A DNA stretch of 64,000 bases. Source: a virus. Its lineage: Duplodnaviria > Caudoviricetes. The stretch spans positions 1-64,000 of the IMG/VR virus record IMGVR_UViG_3300032218_002851. One strand, given 5' to 3'. Numbering within the stretch: the first letter of the stretch is position 1; the number at the start of each line of letters is the position of its first letter. Position numbers and translations under genes: made by a program. The notes under the pieces were generated by a model, which ran no database searches, was not told where the DNA came from, and saw only the letters and a program-made list of their open reading frames with translations. Below are positions 18,891 to 54,674 of the stretch, in pieces.

Positions 18891-18902
18891 ATTTAGTTAC
18901 TA

Positions 18903-19350: not shown

Positions 19351-19899
19351 TTATTCCAAGTTAGCGTGCCACTCTCTGAGATTGTCTTCTTCTAATGCAA
19401 GTTTTTCCATAAGATTAAGAATCACAGTTTCAAAGAATATCATAGTAGCAAGTTCAAATCTACTACCAAGAGGAAGATTCTTGTTCGTAGATAAAACTCT
19501 ACTAGATGGACCAATCTGAAAAGTTTTATCAGCCATCTTGCCAAGAGTAGACTCAGGATTTCCAGTGACGAGTAACACTTGAGATTCCTCAGATTTTGCC
19601 TTCTCAGCAAAAGCAATCAACTGCTTGGTTTCACCTGAACCAGAAACAAGAAGAAGTGAATCGCGAATTTCTATAGGTTTGGTAGTAGTTTCTCCAACTA
19701 CTTGAACACTCAAGCCGCAATGCAGCAATCGCATTGCAAACATATTAGCGACCATTTTTGATCTACCTGCGCCTGCCACAAAGATTCGAGGAACCATATA
19801 TGGCGCATAGAGTGCATCGATAAAATCGGTACACATTTCTTTTTCCGTGTAGAGCAGTTCGTCTCTTAGAATATCAAGAACATCAGAGTAATTAGCCAC
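19351..19899 (-). CDS. hxlB: 6-phospho-3-hexuloisomerase (Phi, SIS domain)
   Basis: RIFVAGAGRS, VVGETTT, VSGSGET, PLGSRFE and HANLE motifs; GTG start at 19899 overlaps hps stop. Confidence 0.93.
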   Translation of the reverse strand: MANYSDVLDILRDELLYTEKEMCTDFIDALYAPYMVPRIFVAGAGRSKMVANMFAMRLLHCGLSVQVVGETTTKPIEIRDSLLLVSGSGETKQLIAFAEKAKSEESQVLLVTGNPESTLGKMADKTFQIGPSSRVLSTNKNLPLGSRFELATMIFFETVILNLMEKLALEEDNLREWHANLE

Positions 19900-20530
19900 G
19901 TTCAACAGCTTCCCGAATTTCAGCAGCAGCGCGAACAGGGTCAGCAGCACCATAGATTGCAGCACCTACTACAACGATATCAGCACCAGCATCGATAACT
20001 TGGCGAACGGTATCCTTGTTAATGCCGCCAGCCACTGAGACCATTACTGGTAGGCTTAGACCAACGATTGCCTTGAGGTCCTCGAATGGCGTCTGTCCTC
20101 TCGCCTGAGCATCTAGTCCAGTATGTACGCCGATGATGTGGGCACCTAACTCGGCAACCTGGAAAGCTTTTTCCATCTTATTTGGAACGCTAATCAAGTC
20201 AACCTGTGCCATACCACCTTCTCTAAGCTTTGCTGCTTCAATAACACCAGAGATGGTTCCCACGTCCGCAGCACCAAGTACTGTAACGATATCTGCGCCA
20301 ACTTTAAAGAAAGGCGACGCTTCGTACAATCCGGCGTCCATTGTCTTGAGGTCCGCTAGAACCTTACGTGTAATAGAATACGCTCGTACAGTTTCGACAA
20401 CGCGAATTCCGTTAACCTTAACGCATGGAGTACCGAGTTCGATGATGTCTACATAGGGTGAGATAAGTTGAGCTAGACGAATTGTGTGTTCATAGTCTAG
20501 AGTATCGAGTGCTGCTTGAATTAATGCCAT
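19892..20530 (-). CDS. hxlA: 3-hexulose-6-phosphate synthase (Hps)
   Basis: IQAALD, IIELGTP, ADLKTMDAG.YEA, GVHTGLDAQARGQTPF, VAGGI and VVGAAIYG motifs; methanotroph-like type. Confidence 0.95.
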   Translation of the reverse strand: MALIQAALDTLDYEHTIRLAQLISPYVDIIELGTPCVKVNGIRVVETVRAYSITRKVLADLKTMDAGLYEASPFFKVGADIVTVLGAADVGTISGVIEAAKLREGGMAQVDLISVPNKMEKAFQVAELGAHIIGVHTGLDAQARGQTPFEDLKAIVGLSLPVMVSVAGGINKDTVRQVIDAGADIVVVGAAIYGAADPVRAAAEIREAVERG

Positions 20531-23737: not shown

Positions 23738-26266
23738 CTAAAGATCTTGATTTTGCAATAATTTTTTAATAATTTGTTGAACAAAAGGATCCGACAACGG
23801 CAGTATTTTATGCTCAGCAGTGACTACACCAGTGATGTAGTACAATCGCCATAAAGTATCGCTTGAAATCTTTTGAAAAAACAAAGAATTATAATCTTGA
23901 TATGAGGTTGGTATCAAACGATAACTGAAAAAATTAGAATATTCAGGATAGTCTTTTTTAATTTTGCTGTCAGCAGAATCTGGAATAGAAATAATGTTAA
24001 GTCTTTCATGACGCATAAAATCACGCCGAAAAATAAAATTTTGGTCATAATTTAATTGACTCAGTAAATGTTCTAGCACAAGTCTTTTATTTTTAGAGTT
24101 GCAATATACGGTGAAATCAACCACCGGCATACCTTTTTCTCGAATTCCAGCAACTATCTTTTGCTTGTCAGTTAGTACACTGCCAAAAATTTTCGGATTG
24201 TTTTGGCCTACAAGCTGCACAAGTTTCTTGAGATATTCTTCTCGATAAGCATTTGGATCACTGGCTATTTGAATCGCACGAACAAATCTGCCGACTGAGT
24301 TTTTGACATCCTGTTGGCTTTCAAGATAATTGTTGCCAGCATGTCTGAAACTTATATATGTTTTATTTTTTTCTTTGCTTATACTTGCATAATGAGCATT
24401 AGTGATTGATTTGACTATTTTTTGCAAATACTTTTCGGCTTGTGCAATATTTTTTATTTTGGGTGTTTGTGCGTTTTTCAAATCTTGCAGCACACTGCGT
24501 GCAAATTCATTGTTTTCTCGATCAAACATTTGTAATATATAGCGGTCTCCGCTGAACAAAACCAGCTTCATTAAATCAATAGATTCTGGAATACTAACAT
24601 TAATATGTAAGCCGGTGCTTTCATTGGTATAAAGGTCTAACTCGTCAGCCAGATCATAAAACTTATCCAACCATGACATAGCAGTGTCAGGATCTACTGG
24701 TGGACTGACAATTTCCATGGTAGCGCCATAATGATCGCCAGGAGCATTCTCTAAACTTCCGTCAGGTTCTATATAAAAATCAGTGATATTTTTTTTACGT
24801 TGTTTGGTAGTACTGAACACATGCACAGGTCTGTTGTATACCCCAGACAGCTTGTTTTTGACTAACTGTTGTGCTAACAAACTTGAGTCTCTGGTAGCAA
24901 TAATCAATGAATCAATGCCTAAGACCCTATCTACATTTTTGGCATCATAATAAAAATAATCATCAAAATTATCATAAAATCTAGCAGGTAATTTAAGCAA
25001 TTTAGCAATATCAGTAGGATCTGAAAAAGTATTAGCTAAAATACTCAAGTCGTTAAAGTACTTGTAACCTCGGACACCAAGTACATGATCACGAAAGATG
25101 TTTCTATAATATCTCAATACGTATTGAGCGCGTGCCAACAATTTTGAATCTTTGACCAAGGTTTTCGGAGCTGATTCAATATGCTTTCTAGCTTCGCGTG
25201 CATAAGCAGCATCTAGTTTTGGTTCAATTGATATAATTTTCTTTTTGATGTTATCTACATACTTTTCGTATTTTACAAGTTTTGCTTCAAATGCTTCACT
25301 GGCAGTTTTGGAGTCAGGCGATTTACCGATCAAATGAAAAACGCGATCCCATAATTCTGGTGTTAACCGATCTGCGAGGTTATAATAGACATGATGCATG
25401 GACATTATCTGACCTATGCTTGAATCAGAATTTTTAACAAGATCATGAATCATATAGCCGTACATACAAACTTCAAATTCGAATCCTACCAACACTCCTT
25501 GTTCAGTGCCTTGTTGTATGCTTGTTTGAAAAGTCCTGGGACTCATTCTCACTTCATGTATTTCATTTTCATCAAGACTAAGTTCAGCATCTTGTTGTTT
25601 GCGACGAGCAACAACTAGTTTTTCTATATAGCCCTCGTTGCGTAAAATCTTGAAGGTTAGATTTTCTGGTCCAAATTCACCAGTGGCAGCCAAACCATTT
25701 TTGCGCATGCGTTTGATTTTGTTGAACAGATTGCCCATTTCTTCCTGATCATTGGATGCAATGGACTTTTGTATACGCATGATCAGATCTTGTACTTTGT
25801 GATTTACATCTTGATCATTTATTTTTGGCGGATTATATTCTGGTTTTTTAATCCAACGATTATCGAGAATGCTGTAAATTCCACCGCTGACCGGGGGTGT
25901 TTCCACATCTTCCACATACAGTTCAGCTTCGTGGCCACGAATCTTGATATCGTGTTCATCGTTCCAGATTTTTTTCTTGGCAGTATAGAATGCTTCTGCT
26001 AGGTCGTCACATTGCAAATCACTGTAACGTGTGACTACATGAATATCAAAGTCTGAATAATCAGTGTAGTTATAGTTAGCCATGCTGCCAGTCAGCACAA
26101 TATCCAATGTTTCAAAATCAGGAATATCCAGTGATTCACGAAATACAGTGGCAATCTGCATGAGTTTTTTGCGAACTTCAGGTCGTAGTTTTTCGCCCTG
26201 CCATGCCAAAGGACAAAGTTTACTGTGGTATTCTACATTGCTTTTGGTGTAATCATCAAGTCTCAT
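23738..26266 (-). CDS. Nucleotidyltransferase fused to amidoligase-like domain
   Basis: N-terminal GSMANY..YSDFDIH (Pol-beta NTase); C-terminal GFEFE, EPDGSL, MEIVSPP, STGLHINVS and FRHAG. Confidence 0.75.
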   Translation of the reverse strand: MRLDDYTKSNVEYHSKLCPLAWQGEKLRPEVRKKLMQIATVFRESLDIPDFETLDIVLTGSMANYNYTDYSDFDIHVVTRYSDLQCDDLAEAFYTAKKKIWNDEHDIKIRGHEAELYVEDVETPPVSGGIYSILDNRWIKKPEYNPPKINDQDVNHKVQDLIMRIQKSIASNDQEEMGNLFNKIKRMRKNGLAATGEFGPENLTFKILRNEGYIEKLVVARRKQQDAELSLDENEIHEVRMSPRTFQTSIQQGTEQGVLVGFEFEVCMYGYMIHDLVKNSDSSIGQIMSMHHVYYNLADRLTPELWDRVFHLIGKSPDSKTASEAFEAKLVKYEKYVDNIKKKIISIEPKLDAAYAREARKHIESAPKTLVKDSKLLARAQYVLRYYRNIFRDHVLGVRGYKYFNDLSILANTFSDPTDIAKLLKLPARFYDNFDDYFYYDAKNVDRVLGIDSLIIATRDSSLLAQQLVKNKLSGVYNRPVHVFSTTKQRKKNITDFYIEPDGSLENAPGDHYGATMEIVSPPVDPDTAMSWLDKFYDLADELDLYTNESTGLHINVSIPESIDLMKLVLFSGDRYILQMFDRENNEFARSVLQDLKNAQTPKIKNIAQAEKYLQKIVKSITNAHYASISKEKNKTYISFRHAGNNYLESQQDVKNSVGRFVRAIQIASDPNAYREEYLKKLVQLVGQNNPKIFGSVLTDKQKIVAGIREKGMPVVDFTVYCNSKNKRLVLEHLLSQLNYDQNFIFRRDFMRHERLNIISIPDSADSKIKKDYPEYSNFFSYRLIPTSYQDYNSLFFQKISSDTLWRLYYITGVVTAEHKILPLSDPFVQQIIKKLLQNQDL

Positions 26267-26648
26267 TGCGTAAATCTTTTAGTAAATCAGGATGTGCATG
26301 ATCGAAATGACGCATAACAATACCAGCCACCGAATTTGCTTCGTTTTCTTGAGGACTGCCAGTGTGACCAGCTTTTGGACCAAGTTCGCCGCGCAATTCT
26401 TGTCGCCAATGTACCAATTCATGTGCTAGAGTGCGAAGTACATCAATCACATGGCGATTGCCTGCTACAACTCTGATATTACCATCATGATACTTGCCGA
26501 AAGTTCCGTCTAGGCCAGTGTCTAGAAAAATAATTTTAGGCAGTTCTTTTATTCCCAGTCTTTTTTGGGCAAAAGGTATAAATCTCACAAGAATTTTTTC
26601 TAATTTGGGGTGGCTTACACCTTCGATGCTGAAATCATTTGCTCTCAT
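26256..26648 (-). CDS. HExxH zinc metallopeptidase-like protein
   Basis: VLRTLAHELVHWRQ...GSPQENEANSVAG. Confidence 0.7.
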   Translation of the reverse strand: MRANDFSIEGVSHPKLEKILVRFIPFAQKRLGIKELPKIIFLDTGLDGTFGKYHDGNIRVVAGNRHVIDVLRTLAHELVHWRQELRGELGPKAGHTGSPQENEANSVAGIVMRHFDHAHPDLLKDLRNET

Positions 26649-26658
26649 AATGATATAT

Positions 26659-28536
26659 TTAGTTTCGCTTACGCATTATATCAATTGCTTTGGCTGTTCG
26701 TTTGGTCATTTGTTCACGATCAATAAAATCTGTTATATCCATTGTTCGCAAGTCATAGTCTGTTTGTTTTAGATTGTTGTCGTTAATAAATATTAATGCC
26801 TCAATGCGAGCCTCAGGCCAAATTGTACCGGGAAAATACGCAACAGCTTGCGTTGGGTTTGTCTTTTTAACTAATTTATATCCCTCTGATGCTTTTCCAG
26901 CAGTTTTTTCTCTGACCACTTCACTTGCCCAAAGCTTTTTAAATGTGCTGATGTTTATTTTTTTAGAAAAGTATTGGCTGATCAGCGTGGACATATAGTT
27001 AGAAGGCACATCTGGCTGCAAAATTTTATACAGCTTTTTTGCATATTCTTCTTGGGCAGCATTTGGATCATTGGCAATTGTCATGGCTTTGGCAACTCTT
27101 AGTAACACAAAATTCAGTTTTTCTACATCATCAAAGTAGTTTGGAGCAGCACTAGCAGTGGGCTGGCCGTCTTTGGCTGCATCATACGCATGACCCACGC
27201 TGCGTATTTCTACATAGTCCTTTCGTGGATTAATACTGAAGTATTTGCCAAAATCAAACTGTATCAAAGCTTGTTGTATACTTTGGTAATACCCATCGCG
27301 CAATGCTGAAATAGCCTGGTTTATGTTTTCAGTATTTTGAGATGCGAGTTTCTCAACAAATGATTGTGTAAAGTTATTGCTTAGTCGTCTAAAAAGAGAG
27401 AGTATTTGTTTGTCGCCGAGAAATACAGCGAATTTCACCAAGTCTATATTCATCACAGGCAAGCTGACGTTTATGTGAAATCCTGTGCTGGGATTGCTTT
27501 TGCCGCCGCATTCTTTCACCCAATCAAAAAATTTAGGTAATATAGCAAGACAACTTTGCAGTGACATAGGTGGAGAAACAATCTCACACGGCAGTTCATT
27601 TGGCGCATAATCCTTGATACTGGAATCTGGTTCTATTATCCATGTATCTTTGATTCTTGGTATGCCGTGATAAGCACTACTGAAATCTACTTTTACACCT
27701 AGATATTCGCGCAAAGAATCAGCTATTGTGGCAGCATTGGCGTTGGAAAAACCTAATGCAGAGTCAAGATTGCCACTCAGAGTTAAATATGGCCAAGGTA
27801 GATCTAATATATTGGCTGCACTCTTCATATCCACAATTCTTTTTGTCTCTAAAAAATGCGTTAAAAATTCGGGTGCATCATACCGTTCATAATAGGATTC
27901 TGTAAATTTTTTCTTTACTCTTTGATATAATTCATTTTTCGTAGAAATAGCATCTTCAATTACATTTTCTAGTTCAACCAATGCATCCCGGCGTGCTTGA
28001 AGATATCTGTTAGCCAAGTCGTTTTGTTCAACATTTAGATTGTCGCTGCCATCGTTCTTCCAATTCTGATAAGATTGGTGCGCAAGTTTAATTTGTTTAT
28101 CACTGAGCCCTTGAGATTTTAGTAGGTCGTGGGTTGTCTTTTCTCGTAATCCGTTGTTTCTAAGAACCTCGTCAAACACTTTTCGATATTCATGAAAGGC
28201 AAAATCTGATTCTATTTTATCCACGAACCAAGATTTATATAACAGCTTTAACGCATCGACTTTTTTTTGTACCAGTGAGCGTGGCGTGCGGACAGAACCG
28301 GTGGCTGATGAGAAAAAATCAATGATCTTATTCCAGCTTACGCCAGCCTCTGGATTTAATAATTTATTTTTAGAATAGTCTGGACTTTCTTTTTTTTGTA
28401 ATCCGGTTTGAGTTAATATCAACTCTGCTTCAAATCCAACTTTAATACCTTCTGTTGCCTTGCCCTGAGCAAATTTTTCCAAAGTCTTTGGCGTAATTTT
28501 GATTTCACTCAGAGGTTTGATTTCACCATATCTCAT
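26659..28536 (-). CDS. Amidoligase-like (COOH-NH2 ligase) protein
   Basis: GFEAE, EPDSSI, EIVSPP, STGFHINVS, KYFSIN and VEIRS. Confidence 0.75.
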   Translation of the reverse strand: MRYGEIKPLSEIKITPKTLEKFAQGKATEGIKVGFEAELILTQTGLQKKESPDYSKNKLLNPEAGVSWNKIIDFFSSATGSVRTPRSLVQKKVDALKLLYKSWFVDKIESDFAFHEYRKVFDEVLRNNGLREKTTHDLLKSQGLSDKQIKLAHQSYQNWKNDGSDNLNVEQNDLANRYLQARRDALVELENVIEDAISTKNELYQRVKKKFTESYYERYDAPEFLTHFLETKRIVDMKSAANILDLPWPYLTLSGNLDSALGFSNANAATIADSLREYLGVKVDFSSAYHGIPRIKDTWIIEPDSSIKDYAPNELPCEIVSPPMSLQSCLAILPKFFDWVKECGGKSNPSTGFHINVSLPVMNIDLVKFAVFLGDKQILSLFRRLSNNFTQSFVEKLASQNTENINQAISALRDGYYQSIQQALIQFDFGKYFSINPRKDYVEIRSVGHAYDAAKDGQPTASAAPNYFDDVEKLNFVLLRVAKAMTIANDPNAAQEEYAKKLYKILQPDVPSNYMSTLISQYFSKKINISTFKKLWASEVVREKTAGKASEGYKLVKKTNPTQAVAYFPGTIWPEARIEALIFINDNNLKQTDYDLRTMDITDFIDREQMTKRTAKAIDIMRKRN

Positions 28537-30737
28537 CGGATTTGCCTGATATCCAGATCATCGAATGTCATGTTAGCAAACATATCTGCTGGATAAGGTT
28601 TTTTGATTGCTGCTTGCCAAGCATCGTGTTCATTAGCAGCATCTACTTCTAGATAACGAGTATCGTGATTAGTTCCTGCATAGCGTTTGAATCCCACCAT
28701 ATAGCGTTTTAGTTTGGTGGATGATTTTGGTTCGTCAGTCTTTTTTGAACTGCTGATTTTTTGGGCTAGTAGTTGGCGCTGAGTAGCAAGATCACTGATT
28801 TCACTGCCTTCTGCCTTGTTGATTTCATAACCATATTTTAAAAAGTCTCGTAGTGATCCATTGCCGTATTTGTTGAATGCTGCTCGCAATGCCTCCCACC
28901 CAATCATATCAGGTAAAAACATCACCTGCTCTTGATTTATATCAGATATAACCCAATCATGTTTTTTAAAGTCTGATGTATCTTGTTGTTCTTTGGGCTT
29001 GACAGATGCAAGTACCTTGTCGGCCCATTCTTTTTTAAGAGTGTTTGAATTGATCAACCCTACCATGTATTTGCAGAATAATCCAATGATATCATCCATT
29101 TCGGTTGGATCTACTGAAACTCTGGATCCTTTGGTTCTTACATCAGAAGAAGCAAATTTTGTCTGATGATATTTCGTAAAGCCTTTTGCGGTAGACTCAG
29201 GATCAGTGTCTTTTGGATTCCAATATTTCAGAATGGTCGGTGATAATACTTTATACAACTTCTTGAAGTATTCATTTCGTTCTGCTTCAGGATTTGCAGC
29301 AATATACATTGCCTGAGCATAGCGCATTAAAGTGTTTTTCAATTTGTCAATATCATCAAAATAATCTTTTCCGCCGGCGCTGCGAAATTCTACATAATTT
29401 GCTTTAGGATTAATACTGAAATATTTGCCAAATCCTTGGCCGCCAGCGGAACTCTGATGTATCATAAAATGTGATGCATCGGTTATTCCCTTGCGCAAAT
29501 CTTCAAATGCACGTATCAGCATTGCTGTGTCTCTGGCTGCATTGGCCGGGCTATGATTGGACCTTATATTTTTGATTGTGGTTTTTATTCTTTTTAAAAA
29601 ACTTTCTGCATATGTACTATTTTGTCTTTTAAACTGCTTTAGCACATATTCATCACCCAGAAATAATGCTAATTTAACGGTATCAAGATTTGCAGTAGTC
29701 TGACTAGACAAGCTGACACCCATGTGAAATCCTGTGCTTTTGTTTGAATAAGCATTATTATCTTTTGCCCATGCAAAAAATTCAGGCAACCAATACTCTA
29801 CTACTTCTTTCAACGGCTTGGGTGGACTTATAATTTCAATCGGTAAATCTCTCATATCATCAACGATAATACTGCTATCTGCTTCAAATACCCAGTTATT
29901 CCCGTCTCTTGTGGCAGTATGATAGCCTGAACTGACTTTAACGGTTTCCTCACGGAATGTGCGTCTAAAATCATCTGCCAAGTCTCTAGCAGAAGCTTCA
30001 ACATATTCGCCCTGTTCATCACCGACGGCTATAAAAGGCCATTCAAGATCGTATGCATTAGCTACTTCCATCATTGAATCATATGTCTGTTGTACCCAGT
30101 AATCTTCATCGAGATCAAACTCGTCGGTAAATTCATCTCTTGCTTGACTCCAGTATACTCCTTGGGATCTTATCTCATCTTCTACTTTTTCTTCAAACTC
30201 TGCGTTAGCAGCGTCATATGCTTCATCATAAGTTTCTCGGTCCACGCTGTCACCACGCCGTAAGATGCGTTCAACATCTTCTTCTGAATATTTGTTGCGT
30301 AGTTTATCAGCAACTTCGATTTCTTCGTCCCATGATTCTTGGCGCATTAGTTCAGTAACTAGTTCAAGTTCAGATTCTGCAAACGATTCATCAATTTGTT
30401 TATCAACCCAGACACGATATTCCTCTCGCATTTCATATTCTAATCTTTGTCTGCCAGTCCGCGCTAATCCAAGATTAAAATCATCATTTGAGAAGAAACG
30501 TAGTACGTCCGGGATGCTGACTGGTCTTTCATCCATTTCATAATCTGGCTCCCCTTGTATGTTTGAATCTTGCACACCCATTCCTTCAAATACCAATTCA
30601 GCTTCAAAGCCAGCCATCATGCCTTCAGCAGCAGGACTGTTCATGAACTTGGTAAGCGCGGTAGGATCCATGCGTACTTCATCTAAAATTTGCTCAGATT
30701 CTTTTTTTGGTGCTAACTTGAAGTCTTTAAATTTCAT
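28533..30737 (-). CDS. Amidoligase-like (COOH-NH2 ligase) protein with acidic insert
   Basis: GFEAE, EADSSI, EIISPP, STGFHMGVS, KYFSIN and VEFRSAGG. Confidence 0.75.
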   Translation of the reverse strand: MKFKDFKLAPKKESEQILDEVRMDPTALTKFMNSPAAEGMMAGFEAELVFEGMGVQDSNIQGEPDYEMDERPVSIPDVLRFFSNDDFNLGLARTGRQRLEYEMREEYRVWVDKQIDESFAESELELVTELMRQESWDEEIEVADKLRNKYSEEDVERILRRGDSVDRETYDEAYDAANAEFEEKVEDEIRSQGVYWSQARDEFTDEFDLDEDYWVQQTYDSMMEVANAYDLEWPFIAVGDEQGEYVEASARDLADDFRRTFREETVKVSSGYHTATRDGNNWVFEADSSIIVDDMRDLPIEIISPPKPLKEVVEYWLPEFFAWAKDNNAYSNKSTGFHMGVSLSSQTTANLDTVKLALFLGDEYVLKQFKRQNSTYAESFLKRIKTTIKNIRSNHSPANAARDTAMLIRAFEDLRKGITDASHFMIHQSSAGGQGFGKYFSINPKANYVEFRSAGGKDYFDDIDKLKNTLMRYAQAMYIAANPEAERNEYFKKLYKVLSPTILKYWNPKDTDPESTAKGFTKYHQTKFASSDVRTKGSRVSVDPTEMDDIIGLFCKYMVGLINSNTLKKEWADKVLASVKPKEQQDTSDFKKHDWVISDINQEQVMFLPDMIGWEALRAAFNKYGNGSLRDFLKYGYEINKAEGSEISDLATQRQLLAQKISSSKKTDEPKSSTKLKRYMVGFKRYAGTNHDTRYLEVDAANEHDAWQAAIKKPYPADMFANMTFDDLDIRQIR

Positions 30738-34576: not shown

Positions 34577-35524
34577 TTACTTAACCCATTCTTGTGCTTT
34601 TTGAGCTACTTTAGCGGGTAATGGAACATATCCATCTTTGACTACAATTTCTTGTCCAGTCTTTGATAGCACCATCTTCATAAATTCCTTTTCAAGAGGA
34701 GCAAGAGATTCATTAGGATGCTTGTTCACATAAACATACAAGTATCGAGCTAAAGGATACTTACCGGAAATAGCATTTTCTGGTGTTGGTTCAATAGCCT
34801 CTCCACCGTCTTTACGAGAAAGAGGAAGAGCTTTAACGCTTGCAGTCTTATAACCAATACCAGAGTACCCAATACCGTTCAATGATTTAGTAACACCTTG
34901 TACCACAGAAGCAGATCCGGGCTGCTCATTTACGTTACTCTTATAGTCGCCTTTACAAAGAGCAAACTCTTTAAAGTAACCGTATGTGCCTGATACTGAA
35001 TTACGACCAAACATCTGAATGCGCTGATTGCCAAGATCACCAGTTACTCCTAGACCGCTCCACTGGCTAATGTCGTTATCGTGACCGCAAGCTCTTGTTG
35101 CAGAATAGATTGCATCAACTTGTGGGATAGAGATAGATGTGATCGGATTATCCTTATGAACAAAGACGGCTAGAGCATCAATTGCTACTGGAATAGCCGT
35201 TGGCTTATATCCATACTTGCCTTCAAATGCCTCTACTTCTTCCGACTTCATCATACGACTCATCGGACCTAGTGTTGCCGTGCCTTCAGTTAGAGCAGGA
35301 GGAGCCGTAGCTGAACCTGCTGCTTGAATCTGTACTGTGACATTAGGATAGAGACGTTTAAATTCTTCTGCCCAAAGTGACATAAGATTTGCAAGAGTAT
35401 CAGACCCAACTGATGATAGCGTACCCGATACACCTTCTACTTTTTCGTAGGGAACAATCTCCGCATCGATTGCTGATGCGGAGAAAGAGATTGTGGCAAG
35501 AATACTAAGTAATAGTTTTTTCAT
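34577..35524 (-). CDS. pstS: Phosphate ABC transporter substrate-binding protein
   Basis: Signal peptide; [46 protein letters not shown] and YPLARYLY. Confidence 0.95.
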
Positions 35525-35533
35525 AAATGCTCC

Positions 35534-36940
35534 TTACCAGAATACTGCCATACGAGTAACGATTGCTGATGGTTCAGAACCAGCATACTTACCACCTTCT
35601 ACATCAAGAACCTTGACATAGTTAGTCTGGAAGCGAACGTTCTGTACTGGAAACCAATTAACGCCAACTGATAGATTCTTTTCACGACCACCAGTGATTA
35701 AATCGCTATTCAAGTCTGTATCCGAGAATCGACCAACAAGTTCCCAAGCACCCCATCCACCTTTACCAACAAGAGACTGTGGCTTGACTGAATCAAAGAT
35801 ACCTTCTTGAAACTTATATGGACGAGATTCACCAGTTAGGAACCAGCCAGCAGAGACATAATAACCTTGGAAGTAAGGATTGCCAGCAGCAGTATTCACT
35901 TGCATACCAAGATATTCACTTTGTAGAGTAAATGGTCCCTGTACTACAACAAACTCACCGTTCCAGCGAAGTAGATGATCAGCACCAAATTTACCAGTAT
36001 CAATTAGGCGAGTAGATGTTTCATTGACTTCCATTCTTTCGCGAAGCTGAACGTTGTTACCATCCTTAAATCCACGATAAGAGACACCAGAACCTAGATG
36101 AAGTACATGACCACCATCATGCCAAGGTGCCCAAGTTACACGTCCAGTAGCAGCATAACCATCATTGAAGTCACGAGGATTGGTTTCATCTGCACCCTTA
36201 TCGGAAATGGTTTCTTGCTGGCGAGTACCAAAGATACCCCCGCTATAGGTAAAGTGATCTGTCCAAGTAGTTAGCTTGATACCGGGATTACGTTCACCAA
36301 CATAGTTAGCAAGAGCATTGACTGGCATTGCACGTTCTACAAATAGACCATTGTTTGAGCTATTGATTAGATCAAAGCTAAATGGTTCGTGTGACTGACC
36401 AATCTTGACACTTGTAGGATGTGCTACTGCATCAATACCGGGAAGCTTACCAACATATTCAACATAGGCATCCTTTAGACCTTCAATGCCTTTGTCTGAT
36501 TCACGGAAATCGTATTCAGCTTTGAACTTCCAATTAGTATTCAGTGTACCAGCAACACCAAGTCTTAGACGACGAAACTGACCTGCATCTGCCTGATTGA
36601 ATCCACCGTCTTTATCAAAGAAGGCAGTATCATAATGAATACGACCAATTGTGCGCCAAGCAAAATCTCCGGGCTTGTCTTTTAGTTCAAACTTACCGGG
36701 AGTAAGACCGGGAGTACCTAGCTGAGCAAGAGACTGTTCGACCTTTTTACCAACTTCTGCGCCAGCAGCATTGTTAGTTTCTTCATCAGCTTGAGCGGCA
36801 GACTTAAGTTCCTCATACGATTTGGCGTCAAGGGTTCCTCTAGTCTTTAGAGTATCCAGTAGCTGGATCATCGCATCGTTTGCAGCAAATGCTGGCGCGC
36901 TTAATAGGCACGACAGTAATACTATTGTGGATTTTCTCAT
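35534..36940 (-). CDS. oprP: Phosphate-selective porin OprO/OprP family
   Basis: Signal peptide; GRIHYD, RRLRLG..G, FVERA, WFLTGESR.Y, WELVGRFS.DL and GVNW; C-terminal aromatic W. Confidence 0.9.
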   Translation of the reverse strand: MRKSTIVLLSCLLSAPAFAANDAMIQLLDTLKTRGTLDAKSYEELKSAAQADEETNNAAGAEVGKKVEQSLAQLGTPGLTPGKFELKDKPGDFAWRTIGRIHYDTAFFDKDGGFNQADAGQFRRLRLGVAGTLNTNWKFKAEYDFRESDKGIEGLKDAYVEYVGKLPGIDAVAHPTSVKIGQSHEPFSFDLINSSNNGLFVERAMPVNALANYVGERNPGIKLTTWTDHFTYSGGIFGTRQQETISDKGADETNPRDFNDGYAATGRVTWAPWHDGGHVLHLGSGVSYRGFKDGNNVQLRERMEVNETSTRLIDTGKFGADHLLRWNGEFVVVQGPFTLQSEYLGMQVNTAAGNPYFQGYYVSAGWFLTGESRPYKFQEGIFDSVKPQSLVGKGGWGAWELVGRFSDTDLNSDLITGGREKNLSVGVNWFPVQNVRFQTNYVKVLDVEGGKYAGSEPSAIVTRMAVFW

Positions 36941-41120: not shown

Positions 41121-41327
41121 TCAAATATTTTGGTCATCATAAGAGTCAAAAAGAACGCTTGGATCTTGTAGCCCGATCAATGATCCGCCTGGACCTTTGC
41201 GAAGAATACCTTTTTCTAGCCCGTGTTGTTTGATATTTTTCCATTCTTCTTCTAGAAGGTTGGTGAAATCTTCTTCGGAACCTAAAAATTCTTCAGGCCA
41301 TGGTTTGTTCTTTATTTTATTTTTCAT
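41121..41327 (-). CDS. Small hypothetical protein
   Basis: ORF track. Confidence 0.45.
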   Translation of the reverse strand: MKNKIKNKPWPEEFLGSEEDFTNLLEEEWKNIKQHGLEKGILRKGPGGSLIGLQDPSVLFDSYDDQNI

Positions 41328-42324
41328 TTGCTACACACTCCGCGTGTTCAATAAATTGTCGCGCTGAATACCGCCAAGTCCAGCGTTCAGCAGTATACCT
41401 AACTCGTCGTCTATCTATATTAGCGCATTGGTCTAAGGCTGTTTGCAAGTCCGTGTTTATCCATCCGTTTATTCCGTTTTCAATTACTTCCAGCGGCCCT
41501 GGTTCTGGATATGCAGCTACTGGAGTGCCAGAAGCAATGGCTTCTAGCAGCACAATCCCAAACGTATCAGATTTACTGGGAAACACAAATGCATCAGCAT
41601 TGGCATACCATTTAGCCAATGCTGCACCTTCTTGATGACCCGGGAAAATAACATCTGGATATTTTCGCTTTAACGAAGCGAGATATGGGCCATCACCTAC
41701 CAAAACTTTTTGGGAATGATTCAATCGACAAAAATCATCCAAGCCTTTTTCCTTGCTAGCCCTACTCACGCACAAAATATAGCCACCAGTTGTTTGGTCT
41801 CTTTTATCCAAGGAAAATAACTTTCCATCCACACCTCTAGTCCATATAGAAGTGTTGTACATTCCGTGCTGGTGCAAACACTGTGCTAAACCTACAGTAG
41901 GACAAAGAATCGCTTGGCTATTTCGATGAAACCAACGAAAGTAAGGATATGTCAAGTGTGTCGGTATTCCCCAACGACGCTTAATAAGATCAGGAAACAG
42001 TGTATGAAAACCTGTGGTAAAAGGTATGGTGTTGCGCTTACAAAATCGCCGAGTCATGAGTCCGATAGGACCTTCGGTAGCTATGTGTATGTTCGTGTCG
42101 CTATCAACCCTTGATGAAAGTTCATTGGTTACTGCGGATAAATTACAAACATATTCGATTTCAGGATATGCTTTTAATATTCTACGTTTGAAAGCCGGCA
42201 GATACGGATGAATCACATCACAAGTCACACCTAACTCTGAAAAATAAGGCAAAATATTTTGATATGAGCGAATCACGCCATTTACTTGGGGAATCCAGGC
42301 ATCAGTAGCTATCAATATTTTCAT
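41317..42324 (-). CDS. agt: GT4 glycosyltransferase, Agt-like (glycolipid synthase)
   Basis: MKILIATDAWIPQVNGV, HIATEGPIG, WTRGVD and FPSKSDTFGIVLLEA.ASGTPVAAYP. Confidence 0.8.
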   Translation of the reverse strand: MKILIATDAWIPQVNGVIRSYQNILPYFSELGVTCDVIHPYLPAFKRRILKAYPEIEYVCNLSAVTNELSSRVDSDTNIHIATEGPIGLMTRRFCKRNTIPFTTGFHTLFPDLIKRRWGIPTHLTYPYFRWFHRNSQAILCPTVGLAQCLHQHGMYNTSIWTRGVDGKLFSLDKRDQTTGGYILCVSRASKEKGLDDFCRLNHSQKVLVGDGPYLASLKRKYPDVIFPGHQEGAALAKWYANADAFVFPSKSDTFGIVLLEAIASGTPVAAYPEPGPLEVIENGINGWINTDLQTALDQCANIDRRRVRYTAERWTWRYSARQFIEHAECVANEK

Positions 42325-43070
42325 GAACTCATGCTACTCCATTCGATAATACGCCAGTTGCCATTAAAATCTTCAACCAGTGCTGTGCAACTTTCCACAA
42401 AATCGCCGTCGTTCATGTATTCAACGCCATCAATCTGTTTGATTTCTGCATGGTGAATGTGTCCACAAATAATACCGTCATAACCTTTGCGACGACAATA
42501 CTCAGCCATGTTTTTCTCATAGCTTACAATATGACCTACTGCAGTTTTTACAGCCAACTTCAAATACTTGCTTAGACTCCAATAGCCAAATCCAAATTTG
42601 CGACGAATCCAGTTGAACTGCGTGTTTAGTCCTAAAATCATTTCATAAAGGTAATCTCCTAAGTAACTAATCCAACGATGATAATTCAAGATGCCATCAA
42701 ACATGTCGCCATGAATCAACAAATATCGTCGGCCATTAAGGGCAGTATATTCATAACGATTGTGGATCTTGATCAATCCAAAACTTAAGTCTAGTCCTAG
42801 AGTGGCTCGTAAAAATTCATCATGATTTCCTACGATATAATGAACTTTGGTTCCTTTTTTAGCGTGACTTAGAATCTTGCGAACTACATTGGTATGAGTT
42901 TGATCCCATCGCCATTTCTTCTGCTGTATCTTCCATCCGTCGATGATATCTCCGATCAAGAATAGATTTTCTGCTTGATTGTGTTTGAGAAAATCTAAAA
43001 GCAATAAGGACTTGCAATCCTTACTGCCTAAGTGCAGATCGCTGATACAAATAGTCTTATATCTGTTCAT
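42321..43070 (-). CDS. plcP: PlcP-like phospholipase C (LpxH-like metallophosphoesterase)
   Basis: ISDLHLG, GDIIDGW, GNHDE, IHGD.FD, GFGYWSLSKYLK, CGHIHH and YMNDGD.VESCTALVE; coupled to GT4 gene. Confidence 0.8.
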   Translation of the reverse strand: MNRYKTICISDLHLGSKDCKSLLLLDFLKHNQAENLFLIGDIIDGWKIQQKKWRWDQTHTNVVRKILSHAKKGTKVHYIVGNHDEFLRATLGLDLSFGLIKIHNRYEYTALNGRRYLLIHGDMFDGILNYHRWISYLGDYLYEMILGLNTQFNWIRRKFGFGYWSLSKYLKLAVKTAVGHIVSYEKNMAEYCRRKGYDGIICGHIHHAEIKQIDGVEYMNDGDFVESCTALVEDFNGNWRIIEWSSMSS

Positions 43071-43672: not shown

Positions 43673-43996
43673 CGAAGTTTTCCATGGGTCTAATCCTTTT
43701 TTTGTTCAAGACCTATTTAGTCAATCGATGATAATATCAGTAATCTTTCGATCACGAAATATATAATAACTGTTAACTAGATCATGATTGATTCAAATAC
43801 ATTCATTGCCAGGTCAAATCTCATAGTCTTCGATGTTGTTTTTACGCAGATCTTCAATGACCTTCAAGATATTAAATTCATTGTAATCTTGCATTTTCCT
43901 AACTCCAGTTCGTTGACTTCAAGTGTATATTACATCCATAACCTAGATTTGTAAATTACAACGGTAAAAGATGTATAGAATGTCCTGGTCTAGAAT

Positions 43997-44025
43997 GAAA
44001 AAGAGGCAGACTAATGTCTGCCTCT
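43997..44025 (-). terminator. Rho-independent terminator downstream of pqqA
   Basis: agaggcagac-taat-gtctgcctct 10-bp stem plus U-tract on minus strand. Confidence 0.8.
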
Positions 44026-44051
44026 CATTTATCGAAAGTTTGTGCTAAATC

Positions 44052-44126
44052 TCACCGAAATGAGACATAAGCGGTGATTTCGAAACCATTGCGAAGGTCT
44101 TGAAAAGAAGGTGTAGTCCACTGCAT
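44052..44126 (-). CDS. pqqA: PQQ precursor peptide PqqA (24 aa)
   Basis: Read manually: MQWTTPSFQDLRNGFEITAYVSFR; W..P.F.DLR.GFE(xxx)Y signature; RBS TAAGGAG. Confidence 0.9.
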   Translation of the reverse strand: MQWTTPSFQDLRNGFEITAYVSFR

Positions 44127-44150
44127 GTTAGTTCTCCTTAAATGCACTAT

Positions 44151-44156
44151 TATTTA
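44151..44156 (-). promoter_or_regulatory. Late-type promoter TAAATA for pqqA
   Basis: TAAATA 24 nt upstream of pqqA ATG; same motif precedes many late/structural genes here. Confidence 0.6.
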
Positions 44157-44252
44157 CCGTTGCTCTTCAGATAAGCCAACACTATCATCACGGACACGAG
44201 TTTTGAATACCACATTAGGCACAATTTCAGTTGTCATCTTTTTCTTCTTGAT

Positions 44253-44534
44253 TTATCGATTTATGCCATTGATCATTTTGCGCAAATCTGTTGAACTCAG
44301 CGGTCTGTACTCATGAAACCGAGAAGGCTTGCCGAGCATCACATAGTTTTGAACATCAATTTTGCTCATATAACACCACGGTGTAAAATCTGGTTCAATA
44401 ACTTCTCCAGATTCATCTAATACCAAATAGTGTCGTATACTAAATCCTTCAGTTGGTCCGCTTTTTTCTCTAGGTCTATAAGAATAATTTCCAACTCGAA
44501 ATCGAACCGCAGGCAATTTATCAATTTTCTTCAT
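44253..44534 (-). CDS. Hypothetical protein
   Basis: ORF track. Confidence 0.5.
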   Translation of the reverse strand: MKKIDKLPAVRFRVGNYSYRPREKSGPTEGFSIRHYLVLDESGEVIEPDFTPWCYMSKIDVQNYVMLGKPSRFHEYRPLSSTDLRKMINGINR

Positions 44535-50241: not shown

Positions 50242-50432
50242 TTATTTTTCTTAGGTTTAAAATTTTTCCCTGAATCCCACACATCAATGTATGAACCTTT
50301 TGGCAGGTCAGGTTCTTGCAATGCTCCCATTGCTTGTATCATTGCTTTGACTGGTTTGTAACGCTGGGTAGTTAAAACTTTATTATCGCTAGGTTTAATC
50401 TGTTTATTATTGTCAAAATCTTTAAATCTCAT
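50235..50432 (-). CDS. Small hypothetical protein
   Basis: MRFKDF N-terminus; ATGA overlap with cyclase. Confidence 0.5.
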   Translation of the reverse strand: MRFKDFDNNKQIKPSDNKVLTTQRYKPVKAMIQAMGALQEPDLPKGSYIDVWDSGKNFKPKKNNQ

Positions 50433-51448
50433 TTACTTGTTGCCCTATACGTTCCGTCCCAATCTTCTGGTTTACCTTCTTCCATACGTTCAATCATCGC
50501 TTCATAATACTTCTTCATTTCTTTATTTGTTTTAGAAAGCTTCTTCGCTATATTGATAGCTTCAGCCCAGCTACCTGCATAGTATTCTGAAAGGAATTTC
50601 TCTTGCATTGGTTCTTCCCCAAGAGTATATATCTTAACTCCCAACTTCTTACCTTTGACGGCAATACAATCTAACTCTACTACTTTGAATTCGTCTTTGA
50701 CTTGTTCCGCTGTAATTGGCCCCAATATAATTCGAACTCCATACGGTTTGGATTGACCTTCCAACCTTGAAGCAAGATTGACAGAATCGCCGAGACAGGT
50801 ATAATCAAAACGCTGAACGCTACCCATATTGCCAACGACAACAGTCCCAGTGTTAATACCCAAACCCATTCCAAAAGCAGGAATACCTTCAGGCTCAATT
50901 TGTCGATTAAATTCATCAAGACTCTCCATCATTTGTATTGCTGTTCTTACTGCATTTTTGGCGTGTTGTGGATCGTCTAAAGGAGCATTCCAAAATGCCA
51001 TCTGAGCGTCACCAATATACTTGTCAAGCGTACCATTGTTCTCAATAATCTTCTCTGTCATCGCCGTCATATATCGATTCATAATAGAGGTTAGACCTTG
51101 AACGTCTGCGCCATAATGCTCAGAGATCGCAGTAAACCCACGAACGTCTGTAAACATAATAGACAATTCTTTAGATTCACCACCGAGCTTCAATAGATCT
51201 GGATTCTTCTGTAGTTTCTCTACTAGTGCTGGACTTAAATATGTACCAAACTGCTTCTTTATTTGCAGTTTTTGATTCAATTCGGTTATAAAACGCACAA
51301 TATTGATATGCAAAGACACCAATATCACCGCAATGGTAGGAAGTGTAATATCTAACAGCATTCGGTATTCGTGATATGCATATCTAGACCCACTGTATAA
51401 CGCTGCCACGAACAGTACAGGCAATATATAACTCAAATGCTTGTTCAT
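50429..51448 (-). CDS. Class III adenylate/guanylate cyclase (C-terminal part)
   Basis: MFTDVRGFT, DKYIGDAQMAFWNAP, GLGINTG.VVVGNMGS and GDSVNLASRLEG; likely start MNKHL at 51448. Confidence 0.9.
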   Translation of the reverse strand: MNKHLSYILPVLFVAALYSGSRYAYHEYRMLLDITLPTIAVILVSLHINIVRFITELNQKLQIKKQFGTYLSPALVEKLQKNPDLLKLGGESKELSIMFTDVRGFTAISEHYGADVQGLTSIMNRYMTAMTEKIIENNGTLDKYIGDAQMAFWNAPLDDPQHAKNAVRTAIQMMESLDEFNRQIEPEGIPAFGMGLGINTGTVVVGNMGSVQRFDYTCLGDSVNLASRLEGQSKPYGVRIILGPITAEQVKDEFKVVELDCIAVKGKKLGVKIYTLGEEPMQEKFLSEYYAGSWAEAINIAKKLSKTNKEMKKYYEAMIERMEEGKPEDWDGTYRATSK

Positions 51449-52455
51449 CGACGCCTCCATACTGCAAAAAATACTAACAACAGTCCCATAACTAGCATGG
51501 CTAGTATTTCTGCACCATCTGCCCAATCAGGACGTTTTATATTAGATCCTGCGATCATGGTAGAAATCACAGCAGCTTGTAAATCCTGTGGCCATACACT
51601 ACCTACTGCTGTTGGAACTGGATTGGATATGCCAGCCGCACTAACGCCTACAATTACAACTGCACCTTCAAAGTTTTCTAATAAGTCAACTGCTGATACA
51701 GATTGAGCACGCTGACTCCAGTCGATCCATACACGCCCTAAGTTGTCAGTAGCTATTGGACCAAACTTAGGTATACGCATTTTTTCCACGCCAAGTGCAT
51801 TTAGTTTAACTTGGAAGGTAGTATCGCCGGCAGCAGCACGTAGAGCTTCCATTGCTAATGAAGGATATAGTTTCTTATCTACGGTGGCAATCAATGGTGC
51901 TCTACGAACAACGCCATCAACTTCTGGTAATGTATTAACGGTTCCTACACCGTATGCTCGATCTTCTAATAAGGATACATTAGATATGAGTCCTGGATAT
52001 TCTATTATGCGATCAAGAAACTCTGGCCCCATCACTGCGCTACCCGGCACATGCGCTTTGTTTTTGCTTTTTTCTGCGGGCATGTTAGCAAGCACCACTG
52101 GATTTTCATCTAGTACAGCAGCTAACGCTTTATCGCCGCCTTGACGATCTGTTTCAGGCATCATAACGTCCCATACTACTAATCCAGCTTTTCGGGCGTA
52201 GAGATCGCTGATTAGATCGGCGTATATTTCTCGATTAAAAGGCCACTGTCCATATTTGTCCAGTGTTGCTTCGTCTATGTTGATTGTGAATATATTTGTT
52301 GGTTTAGAGGGTTCACTGGTTATCAATGTGTCAAAATAACGCAGTCTTACTGATTCAACAAAGTTTGGATCTGCGATTCTAACTGATAATACTATGCCTA
52401 GTGTTGCTAGTGCTAGCCAAGGACTTACTAAAATTTTCAATAGTATTTTTTTCAT
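51445..52455 (-). CDS. CHASE2 sensor domain protein (N-terminal part of cyclase)
   Basis: INIDE.TL.KYGQWPFNR, DGVVRR.PL, PSLA.E.LR and V.P.DLQA. Confidence 0.85.
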   Translation of the reverse strand: MKKILLKILVSPWLALATLGIVLSVRIADPNFVESVRLRYFDTLITSEPSKPTNIFTINIDEATLDKYGQWPFNREIYADLISDLYARKAGLVVWDVMMPETDRQGGDKALAAVLDENPVVLANMPAEKSKNKAHVPGSAVMGPEFLDRIIEYPGLISNVSLLEDRAYGVGTVNTLPEVDGVVRRAPLIATVDKKLYPSLAMEALRAAAGDTTFQVKLNALGVEKMRIPKFGPIATDNLGRVWIDWSQRAQSVSAVDLLENFEGAVVIVGVSAAGISNPVPTAVGSVWPQDLQAAVISTMIAGSNIKRPDWADGAEILAMLVMGLLLVFFAVWRRR

Positions 52456-52470
52456 CTATACTATTTATTG

Positions 52471-53586
52471 TTAATTTCCTTGCGTTACGGTTATCTTAGG
52501 GCAACCTCCAGTTGTTGCGCAATTGAATTGAATACTATAGAACTGTTGAGTAGATCCAGATTGAGATAAGCTGAGGTCTACCGGCAATCCACTTAGACTA
52601 ATGCTGGCCATATGTGAAGCAGAACCTTGTTGAGTGATATCAACATTTTTATTTCCACCACTGAGATTTATTTCAGCATAATGACTACCTGAGTCTTTTT
52701 GAGTAACTATAAGACTATTATTATCATCGATTACTGTGGCAAATACACCTTTAGCTCCGCCAGTGCTTTGTTGTAAAAGTGTTGCAGTATTAGTATCACC
52801 GGTAATAGTAAGATCTGCATAATTAACTTGTGTACTGTTATTTCCTGATTGTGTTATAGATACTATATCGTTACTGCCATTGCCGGAATACTTTGCATAG
52901 TTATTTTTAGTTCCAGTTTGTTCCACGGTTACAATATTTTGATTTCCTACTTGTTCAACATAGACCTGGCTGTCTTGAGTCGTTCTTCCAACAAATGACA
53001 TAACCTTATTAACATTTTGTGAACTGGCACTGAATATACTTGCACTGCCTCCGCAGCACAAAGCAGGGACAGCGTTATAGTTTGTATCATATAAGAATGC
53101 AACTTCTGCTATCTGCATACTGTTAGAAGCATTGTCTTTGATCGTGGGAAAGATAATACGATAATAAAGAAAACTGGTGCTGTTAGTCAATGTATAAACA
53201 GAGCTTTCTGCATATCTGCTGTTACTGAGACTGATAGATTGATTAGCTGTCAATGTGGTCCATGTAGATCCATCATTTGAACCGTAAAGAGTAAAGCTGG
53301 TTGGATCTCGGCCTGGACTATCGTTTGCTGTTGTAAACTGCATTCCTTGCACTACTTCAGCTTGGCTGAGTTGCACAGTAAATCCAGCATTAAATTTGTC
53401 AAAGTTTAGATATTTACTGCCAACGTTGCCATCTACTGCATTTGGTGATCTTTCTGAAGCCGGACTATTTGAGCTAGTTGGTGTCACAGATGTAATAAAT
53501 GATCTTACATTTGCATAGTTAGGTTCGGTAGCTGATGCATTAATGCAGATAATTAACAATAACAATAACATTAACAGTGTTTTCAT
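52471..53586 (-). CDS. Secreted discoidin/F5-8-like domain plus curlin-like repeats
   Basis: DGN..SKYLNF, TANDSPGRDP.SF.L.GS and MQIAE; C-terminal Q-x-G-N repeats. Confidence 0.7.
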   Translation of the reverse strand: MKTLLMLLLLLIICINASATEPNYANVRSFITSVTPTSSNSPASERSPNAVDGNVGSKYLNFDKFNAGFTVQLSQAEVVQGMQFTTANDSPGRDPTSFTLYGSNDGSTWTTLTANQSISLSNSRYAESSVYTLTNSTSFLYYRIIFPTIKDNASNSMQIAEVAFLYDTNYNAVPALCCGGSASIFSASSQNVNKVMSFVGRTTQDSQVYVEQVGNQNIVTVEQTGTKNNYAKYSGNGSNDIVSITQSGNNSTQVNYADLTITGDTNTATLLQQSTGGAKGVFATVIDDNNSLIVTQKDSGSHYAEINLSGGNKNVDITQQGSASHMASISLSGLPVDLSLSQSGSTQQFYSIQFNCATTGGCPKITVTQGN

Positions 53587-54674
53587 TGTGGTCTTAACAC
53601 ACCTGTATTTTGTTTAATGTTAATTGCGTTACCGCCCGGTCCGCCGTCACCGATGATTTTAAATGCAGTGTTATCGTCTTGTGTAATACTTACATATGTG
53701 TTTGAACTATATCCAAGTGTCTTTACTTCTGCATAATGTTGAGTTTCAACGATTCGATATGCAATTCCTTTTCCTCGTCCTTTAATATCGTTGTTAGGCA
53801 TTTCCCACGCTACACAGACATTTTTATGTGGGTCGCATGATGGTTCATTAGGTGCTTGCATACGATTTAGTACCTCTGCTCTTTCGCTATTAGTGTGAGC
53901 AGCTTGACTTGCAAAATGTCTGACAAATTCTTCTAGATCTGCTTCAGTTTCCTTATCTTTATCTTTACCTGCACTGTCATGTCGTGCCTGTGTAATTTCT
54001 GGAGGCTGAGATAAGATCAAAAAGTTGTTGATTTTGCCTTCCGTGATATTCAGTATGCGAGGAGGTGTAGGCACGGTAGTTGGGTTAGCGGCAAACGTAC
54101 CTTGAAATGCTTGGTCTAGCGTTACCTTACCAGCTAGTGTTTCCACATCTATTTTGCCTACCTTGCAGGTATTTTCTTCTAGTTCGTATTCTTTCTTTTT
54201 CTCACCATCTTTACAACTGGGTAATAACACTATTAGGCTTTGCCCGGCTTCATCAACTGTCATTGTAAAGTCAGTGCCACGAACAGCAATGCTTGCAGCA
54301 GGTGTTTTTATATTAACTTTTTGCGGATTGTTTTTGGCGATTTGTCCGCTAGCATAACGAACCGTTCCCATACCTACTTTTAAGGCTAGTTTTCCAGCAT
54401 CACTTTGTTTTGGATCAAACACAAAATCGTCAATGAGTAATCTACTATTCTCGTTGACTTTCACCTTTGTATCATCTGTAAATGTAATATCGCTTTCACA
54501 TTTCCCGGTAACATAAGTGTCCATGCTTTCAATGCTGGCACCTTTGTCACCGGGTAGCTGCGACTTGTCTCTCTCAATTGAACAACTTGATCCTTTAGTT
54601 TCAGTAACAGAACCAATAGCACCCCAAGCTGGACCGGATAATAATATCAAGGCCAGTATTAGGGTGCGCATCAT
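53583..54674 (-). CDS. FecR-domain protein
   Basis: ITFTDDT.V.V.ENS.L.IDDFV.D...G.VRYASG...TP.A.IAVRGTDF. Confidence 0.85.
   Translation of the reverse strand: MMRTLILALILLSGPAWGAIGSVTETKGSSCSIERDKSQLPGDKGASIESMDTYVTGKCESDITFTDDTKVKVNENSRLLIDDFVFDPKQSDAGKLALKVGMGTVRYASGQIAKNNPQKVNIKTPAASIAVRGTDFTMTVDEAGQSLIVLLPSCKDGEKKKEYELEENTCKVGKIDVETLAGKVTLDQAFQGTFAANPTTVPTPPRILNITEGKINNFLILSQPPEITQARHDSAGKDKDKETEADLEEFVRHFASQAAHTNSERAEVLNRMQAPNEPSCDPHKNVCVAWEMPNNDIKGRGKGIAYRIVETQHYAEVKTLGYSSNTYVSITQDDNTAFKIIGDGGPGGNAINIKQNTGVLRPQ

Follow-up and report, generated by a model that had tools for sequence, protein, structure and literature searches.

A stand-alone pqqA gene in an uncultured phage that also carries formaldehyde-fixation genes

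Can a gene of 24 codons be a working part of a phage's metabolic repertoire, and what would the phage gain from carrying it? The question is raised by a short reading frame on the minus strand (44126..44052) of the stretch of viral DNA analysed here (hereafter, the window), which comprises the first 64 kb of an 89,857-bp IMG/VR virus record classed as linear. A first-pass annotation, made from the letters alone, had read this frame as a hidden pqqA, the gene for the peptide precursor of the cofactor PQQ, and had proposed that a phage copy could sustain methanol oxidation during infection. PqqA is a substrate rather than a catalyst: PqqD binds its leader, and the region of Glu16 and Tyr20 meets PqqE, which cross-links these two residues (PMC10906245). 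One peptide is consumed for each PQQ made (PMC10906245, PMC9851590), and methylotrophs keep several pqqA copies, some of them stand-alone and highly expressed, with copy number raising the supply of precursor (PMC9851590).

A PqqA-family gene among phage genes

Translation of the minus-strand reading frame, 24 codons plus stop with an ATG start, gave exactly the peptide that the first-pass annotation had quoted, its ExxxY core included; the annotation had placed the ORF correctly at 44052-44126 but had assigned it no strand. The PqqA profile search that it had called for placed the 24-residue peptide above both curated cut-offs, at 33.8 bits against PF08042 (gathering threshold 21.1) and 36 bits against the NCBIfam model TIGR02107, an equivalog model with a cut-off of 20. 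A six-frame search of all 89,857 bp of the record gave this PqqA match and no other; its E-value for the record is 5.7e-9, and it is therefore not a chance match. The peptide falls within the length range of the family (about 20-40 residues), and Trp3-x-x-Pro6, Arg12-x-Gly14 and Glu16-x-x-x-Tyr20 are all intact, the Glu and Tyr of the last motif being the residues from which the cofactor is made. Judged by its sequence, the 24-codon ORF is a genuine PqqA-family gene in a phage.

The surroundings of the gene are those of a phage. Nearly all ORFs lie on the minus strand, and several proteins of the record match PHROG families, tail proteins among them. Upstream of pqqA, at a distance of 1.6 kb, is a UvdE-like gene with relatives in 257 viral contigs, several being 0.26-0.40 Mb long; the best 80 of these 257 relatives are 60-66% identical to it. 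We take the record to be a virus because it was catalogued as one in IMG/VR, because of its tail-protein PHROG matches and because it carries genes common to 257 viral contigs; pqqA thus has phage genes around it and not flanking DNA of a host. CheckV estimated the record to be ~25% complete, which implies a genome of ~0.36 Mb. A blastn search with the 3 kb around pqqA found no match among GenBank phages.

The annotation's description of the gene as stand-alone held for the DNA in hand. No match to PqqB, PqqC, PqqD, PqqE, a radical-SAM domain or a PQQ-dependent alcohol or methanol dehydrogenase was found in the 89.9-kb record, and pqqA does not lie beside pqqB-E as in a pqq operon; since the record represents ~25% of the genome, stand-alone status refers to these 90 kb. 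The window does carry, 24 kb from pqqA, two genes for formaldehyde fixation by the RuMP pathway (19351..20530, minus strand): hps, for 3-hexulose-6-phosphate synthase (Hps; 226.6 bits against TIGR03128, equivalog cut-off 200), and phi, for 6-phospho-3-hexuloisomerase (Phi; 165 bits against TIGR03127, equivalog cut-off 160). Their presence in the same window gives independent support for a C1 context of pqqA.

Several other minus-strand features of the window were noted. Family matches identify an LpxH-like (PlcP-like) metallophosphoesterase overlapping a GT4 glycosyltransferase (41317-43070); the same arrangement recurs in three related loci (L243, L244 and L250), and the two form a candidate PlcP-Agt lipid-remodelling pair. 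A PstS-family phosphate-binding protein (279.7 bits) adjoins a 468-residue protein with no NCBIfam match (34577-36940), and a signalling-type run encodes CHASE2, adenylate/guanylate cyclase, F5/8 type C and FecR domain proteins (50429-54674). Three large paralogous proteins are clustered at 23738-30737, syntenic with the related loci L248 and L249; the counterparts of this cluster in L248 (1-6480) give weak or faint Amidoligase_2 matches.

Relatives of the locus and its predicted expression signals

Searches with the PlcP-like protein and with Hps recovered two loci, L243 and L244, that are closer relatives of the window than those in IMG/VR, and the survey of small ORFs in related phages that the first-pass annotation had suggested yielded an intact pqqA in each: at the same place in L243, and beside hps-phi in L244. 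The 18.4-kb L243 contig keeps the gene order of the window (UvdE, small ORFs, a 93-codon ORF, a micro-ORF, pqqA, a terminator stem, DUF551, PlcP-like and GT4), and its neighbouring proteins are 55-81% identical to those of the window. Its pqqA has 23 codons, scores 32.2 bits against TIGR02107 and encodes a peptide 62.5% identical to the window's. Both peptides retain Trp, Pro, Arg, Gly, Phe, Glu, Thr and Tyr, and 8 of the 15 residues identical between them are encoded by different synonymous codons, a pattern that fits purifying selection on the peptide.

L244, whose Hps is 95% identical to that of the window, encodes a 24-codon pqqA (44.1 bits against TIGR02107), and Trp3, Pro6, Arg12 and Gly14 are present in the peptides of both relatives. 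There, ~130 bp free of any terminator-like site separate pqqA from hps-phi downstream (L244:137-976, plus strand), an arrangement that suggests a putative co-transcribed pqqA-hps-phi module and ties pqqA to the C1 genes. Hps relatives 76-95% identical to the window's were also seen on metagenome contigs that resemble related phages (L244 and L246-L249), and the loci taken around Hps in L246-L249 span 10 kb, ending short of the pqqA region.

Further out, the gene drops away. No pqqA was found within 8 kb at the best 80 of the 257 UvdE-sharing loci, nor anywhere in three near-complete distant relatives of 0.33-0.40 Mb, which marks pqqA as accessory, not core, and as belonging to one sub-lineage. 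In four distant giant relatives (G001 and G003-G005), a conserved protein is just ~30% identical to its counterpart here, and no Hps was found; one of the four, G001, carries a Methylophilaceae-type pqqA in an unrelated place. Two further related loci, L250 and L251, extend 1.3 kb beyond the PlcP-like gene on its upstream side, and no pqqA was found in that interval.

Predicted signals for translation and termination flank pqqA. A Shine-Dalgarno sequence, AAGGAG (44139..44134, minus strand), lies 7 nt 5' of the ATG, in agreement with the strong ribosome-binding site (RBS) that had been claimed, and AGGAG or GGAGG occupies the matching place in L243 and L244. Fold and conservation likewise bear out the claim that the gene has its own terminator. 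This predicted intrinsic terminator (43993..44026, minus strand) comprises an 11-bp G+C-rich stem, a 4-nt loop and a T run, with the hairpin itself (44026..44001) starting 25 nt 3' of the stop codon; its folding energy is -21.5 kcal/mol (z = -4.8 relative to shuffled sequences), and the stem sequence is unique in the window and identical in L243.

Initiation is less clearly marked. An AT-rich 19-nt block (44138..44156, minus strand), of which 17 of 19 bases are the same in L243, may be a phage promoter or regulatory site and contains the motif TAAATA (44156..44151). We considered whether the full block is a repeated element of the window and ruled this out, as it occurs there once. TAAATA itself precedes pqqA in all three members of the lineage (the window, L243 and L244), in L244 despite the different position of the gene, and, across the record, 18 of 140 minus-strand ORF starts have it 8-60 nt upstream, compared with 4.4 +/- 2.2 at random positions, an excess to which intergenic AT-richness may contribute. 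Between pqqA and the upstream ORF there is no sigma-70-like promoter, and counts of promoter-like sequences in the region are those of chance. Of the late-type TAAATA promoter that had been proposed, then, a conserved and enriched motif remains, and its promoter function is putative; given its retention in all three lineage members and its enrichment upstream of ORF starts, it is plausible that pqqA has its own promoter there.

Transcription may also arrive from upstream. Directly 5' of pqqA lies a 27-codon micro-ORF (44154..44237, minus strand), which shares a conserved core of ~13 residues with a 32-codon micro-ORF of L243 (7397-7495, plus strand), and before it a 93-residue ORF (44253..44534, minus strand) whose L243 counterpart is 66.7% identical and holds the same place in the order. 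The 93-codon ORF is likely the start of the same transcription unit. The gaps from it to the micro-ORF and from the micro-ORF to pqqA are 15 and 27 nt, and these short distances between same-strand ORFs indicate that pqqA may be the last gene of a small unit, reached by read-through. When sequencing data sets were searched for the stretch, it turned up in DNA contigs of a single study, probably the source, and in no RNA run.

Viral pqqA elsewhere and the likely host

How unusual is a pqqA gene in a phage? A tblastn search of GenBank phages with the peptide matched nine records of Methylophilales or Methylophilaceae phages: Melnitz (four records), P19250A, Venkman, MEP301, MEP401 and MEP402. 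Five loci were examined (Melnitz-1, P19250A, Venkman, MEP402 and MEP301, which cover six of the nine records), and each has, behind an RBS, an intact ORF of 23-24 codons that passes TIGR02107 (5/5). The gene lies in an unannotated gap in P19250A, Venkman, MEP301 and MEP402, whereas in Melnitz-1 an antisense ORF is annotated over it (L003:3967-4075), just as a 64-codon antisense ORF is called over pqqA in L243 (7478-7672). Since gene calls in GenBank and in metagenomes omit phage pqqA or show an antisense ORF in its place, the gene is undercounted when viral auxiliary genes are surveyed; it goes unmentioned in the Melnitz paper. Like the gene of the window, these copies in cultured phages are stand-alone, lack pqqB-E and were missed by callers. 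Their peptides, in contrast, are near-identical to the Methylophilaceae host type and ~50% identical to the present one, and the phages themselves (35-142 kb) are unrelated to the present phage.

One apparent phage example was rejected. The same search gave two matches, the top match among them, to 'Acinetobacter phage MD-2021a', but both are bacterial contigs with a full pqq operon; L002 (CAKLQF020000010.1), for instance, carries fur, ppk, entB and pqqBCDE. The presence of this record in phage collections can yield false 'phage' matches. The operon PqqA of L002, from a pqqABCDE(F) arrangement in Acinetobacter, is of the same family and length as the window's, has the same core motifs and is 62.5% identical to it; the phage gene differs in having no adjacent pqq genes and a polar residue at position 13.

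A wider viral survey used a degenerate DNA pattern for the PqqA motifs, carrying ~42 bits of information. At least 120 IMG/VR contigs matched it; every listed match was an intact ORF of 23-25 codons, and the listed matches were mostly of the Methylophilaceae type. No PqqB-E homologue was detected in the 991 kb flanking the 120 listed loci; among bacterial loci, pqqB-E lay near pqqA in 25 of 34.

The proposal that this is an undescribed phage auxiliary gene did not survive the literature. PqqA was reported in 2020 in the Lake Baikal virus population VP_266, which has a predicted Methylophilaceae host, and was interpreted there as supporting methanol oxidation (Coutinho et al. 2020, Microbiome 8:163, PMC7678222); the same study found radical-SAM genes in a different methylotroph phage population. 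A 2026 study of reservoir sediment described virus-encoded pqqA, pqqD and pqqE (PMC13188868). In both cases, as here, the carrier of the PQQ precursor gene is an uncultured phage and the gene was read as an auxiliary metabolic gene (AMG) for methanol oxidation; the present record differs in being a fragment of a genome with an implied size of ~0.36 Mb, in carrying hps-phi, in having no methanol dehydrogenase gene and in the divergence of its 24-residue PqqA, which has Asn ahead of the invariant Gly. With viral PqqA both published and widespread, the gene described here is a divergent further example of an already reported phage auxiliary gene, and it adds little as a discovery, since neither this kind of gene nor the role proposed for it is new to the literature.

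Precedent for a pqqA away from its operon also exists in bacterial chromosomes. Strain FJNU-6 and Methylovorus sp. MP688 have orphan pqqA genes, with five copies, three of them stand-alone (PMC9851590). Like the phage gene, these are small genes apart from pqqB-E whose product would depend on the enzymes of the operon for processing in trans, but they are chromosomal and host-regulated, whereas the present pqqA is phage-borne, preceded by a phage-type motif and followed by its own terminator.

On the strength of its hps and phi genes, the phage points to a C1-using host, most likely a RuMP-type methylotroph or methanotroph. The closest named homologues of its Hps, at ~61-63% identity, belong to Methylobacillus, Methylotenera and a Methylococcaceae metagenome-assembled genome (MAG). 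Two other routes to the host led nowhere. Assignment by similarity of PqqA itself was dropped: in a sample of 401 genomes, drawn by class and including four unpublished ones (G303, G315, G148 and G046) that enter the tallies only, the best bacterial peptides shared at most 15 of 24 residues with the phage's, and Hps is missing from all ten sampled genomes whose PqqA is most similar, two of the ten having an AMO/pMMO subunit. Sampled bacterial genomes held up to eight pqqA copies, and a pattern for the E-I-T-A-Y core matched four bacterial species, none of them close overall.

The second route was a phage tmRNA gene (18562-18931, minus strand; 122.5 bits against Rfam tmRNA_permuted and 102 bits against beta_tmRNA, gathering threshold 84), whose tag, as predicted by ARAGORN, ends in ...YEMALAA. 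A beta_tmRNA-type gene above cut-off is absent from two sampled RuMP genomes that have 6-8 pqqA copies and two Hps genes, so that the tmRNA type gives no lead to either of them.

What the phage peptide may do

Four points are established. The peptide belongs to the PqqA family; its gene is intact and conserved and has signals for translation and termination; it stands alone in the available DNA; and the same phage carries C1 genes. From these we infer, with a probability of roughly three in four, that a functional phage pqqA supplies the consumable PQQ precursor to the PqqB-E of the host, most likely for methanol dehydrogenase; expression, processing by the host, benefit and the identity of the host are the deduced parts of this reading. 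The phage would carry only the consumable part of the PQQ pathway. PqqA would be translated from a phage transcript ending at the gene's own terminator; host PqqD would bind the N-terminal leader of the peptide, host PqqE would cross-link Glu16 to Tyr20, and a host peptidase, PqqB and PqqC would complete the cofactor. In this way, the longer-lived host enzymes could keep PQQ-dependent periplasmic dehydrogenases supplied once host transcription fails. Since the phage has its own hps and phi, the dehydrogenase served would most likely be the methanol dehydrogenase of a RuMP-type C1 user.

A partial analogy is provided by cyanophage psbA, where the phage likewise carries only the fast-turnover, consumable part of a host energy system. 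The protein and the pathway are unrelated, and the function of psbA during infection has been demonstrated by experiment, whereas the role of pqqA is a proposed one. One consideration weighs against precursor supply: enzyme-bound PQQ is re-used, which counts against a need for fresh PQQ within one infection cycle.

Could the precursor be supplied to a host that does not live on C1 compounds, with PQQ serving a glucose, ethanol or other alcohol dehydrogenase? Most viral copies are of the Methylophilaceae type and the phage peptide is not; over its N-terminal half it looks like the P-[AS]-[FY]-x-D-L-R type of the Acinetobacter contig, and the absence of Hps from the ten genomes with the most similar PqqA points the same way. 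A 24-residue peptide, however, holds little phylogenetic signal, while phage hps and phi make sense only where formaldehyde is made; in L244 pqqA adjoins these very genes, and the closest named Hps homologues are the Methylobacillus, Methylotenera and Methylococcaceae sequences above. We therefore consider a non-methylotroph host unlikely.

The sole feature that keeps this pqqA from being routine is position 13, between the conserved Arg and Gly, which is Asn in the window and Gln in L243, where position 11 is also Asn. All other PqqA peptides collected (~120 viral and ~35 bacterial) have a hydrophobic residue there (Phe, Leu, Ile, Tyr or other), and L244, of the same lineage, has the usual Phe. 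Hydrophobicity between Arg and Gly is thus a near-universal trait that lies outside the formal definition of PqqA, and the window's peptide departs from it. A pattern requiring Asn had no match in representative genomes of 185,579 bacterial and archaeal species; one allowing Asn, Lys, His or Gln had none in IMG/VR and, in JGI metagenome contigs, only two chance matches, both with in-frame stops.

Because position 13 is polar here and otherwise hydrophobic in all collected peptides, processing by host enzymes could be impaired or altered. We found no residue-level requirement at this position in PMC10906245. The polar residue may be a tolerated change or an adaptation to a particular host PqqD; less likely, it signals a change of function, for instance to a decoy. 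The broader proposal that it marks an altered PqqA, whether a decoy for PqqD/PqqE or a peptide adapted to some unusual maturase of host or phage rather than plain extra substrate, strikes us as quite improbable.

Nor is the gene easily dismissed as a neutral passenger, a captured fragment of host DNA that is unexpressed or brings no benefit. Its accessory status, with no copy in the three near-complete relatives or at the 80 related loci, would fit such an origin. Yet the ORF, the RBS and the terminator stem were kept while the neighbouring proteins diverged to 55-81% identity, changes at conserved PqqA residues are synonymous, and at least 120 viral contigs, as well as several unrelated types of cultured phage, have intact copies that stand alone. 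This makes a passenger very unlikely.

Taken as a decoy in the strict sense, the variant peptide would bind host PqqD or PqqE, serve as a poor substrate and throttle PQQ synthesis by the host. The residues Asn13 in the window and Gln13 with Asn11 in L243, which have no counterpart in the large collections scanned, are what such a reading draws on. It sits poorly with the conservation of the cross-linked residues and the rest of the PqqA core, with Phe at position 13 elsewhere in the lineage and with the lack of a requirement at this position in the source cited above, and the formaldehyde-assimilation genes of the phage fit boosting C1 flux, not blocking it; we regard a decoy as highly improbable.

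Most improbable of all is that the remaining, unsequenced DNA of the phage encodes a maturase for the peptide, yielding all-phage PQQ or a different product: the missing ~75% could hold other pqq genes, and radical-SAM genes in another methylotroph phage (PMC7678222) and viral pqqD and pqqE (PMC13188868) have been reported, but 90 kb of this phage gave no match to radical-SAM, PqqD, PqqB or PqqC and the 991 kb around the 120 listed viral pqqA genes hold no pqqB-E.

Supply of precursor to the host's own pathway remains our preferred reading, and two consequences follow from the locus. A genuine metabolic gene can hide below the thresholds of ORF calling. Beyond the single gene, pqqA, hps and phi together suggest a C1 helper set, in which a cofactor precursor for methanol oxidation is paired with formaldehyde fixation and which could bear on the flow of carbon through methylotrophs or methanotrophs in the source habitat.
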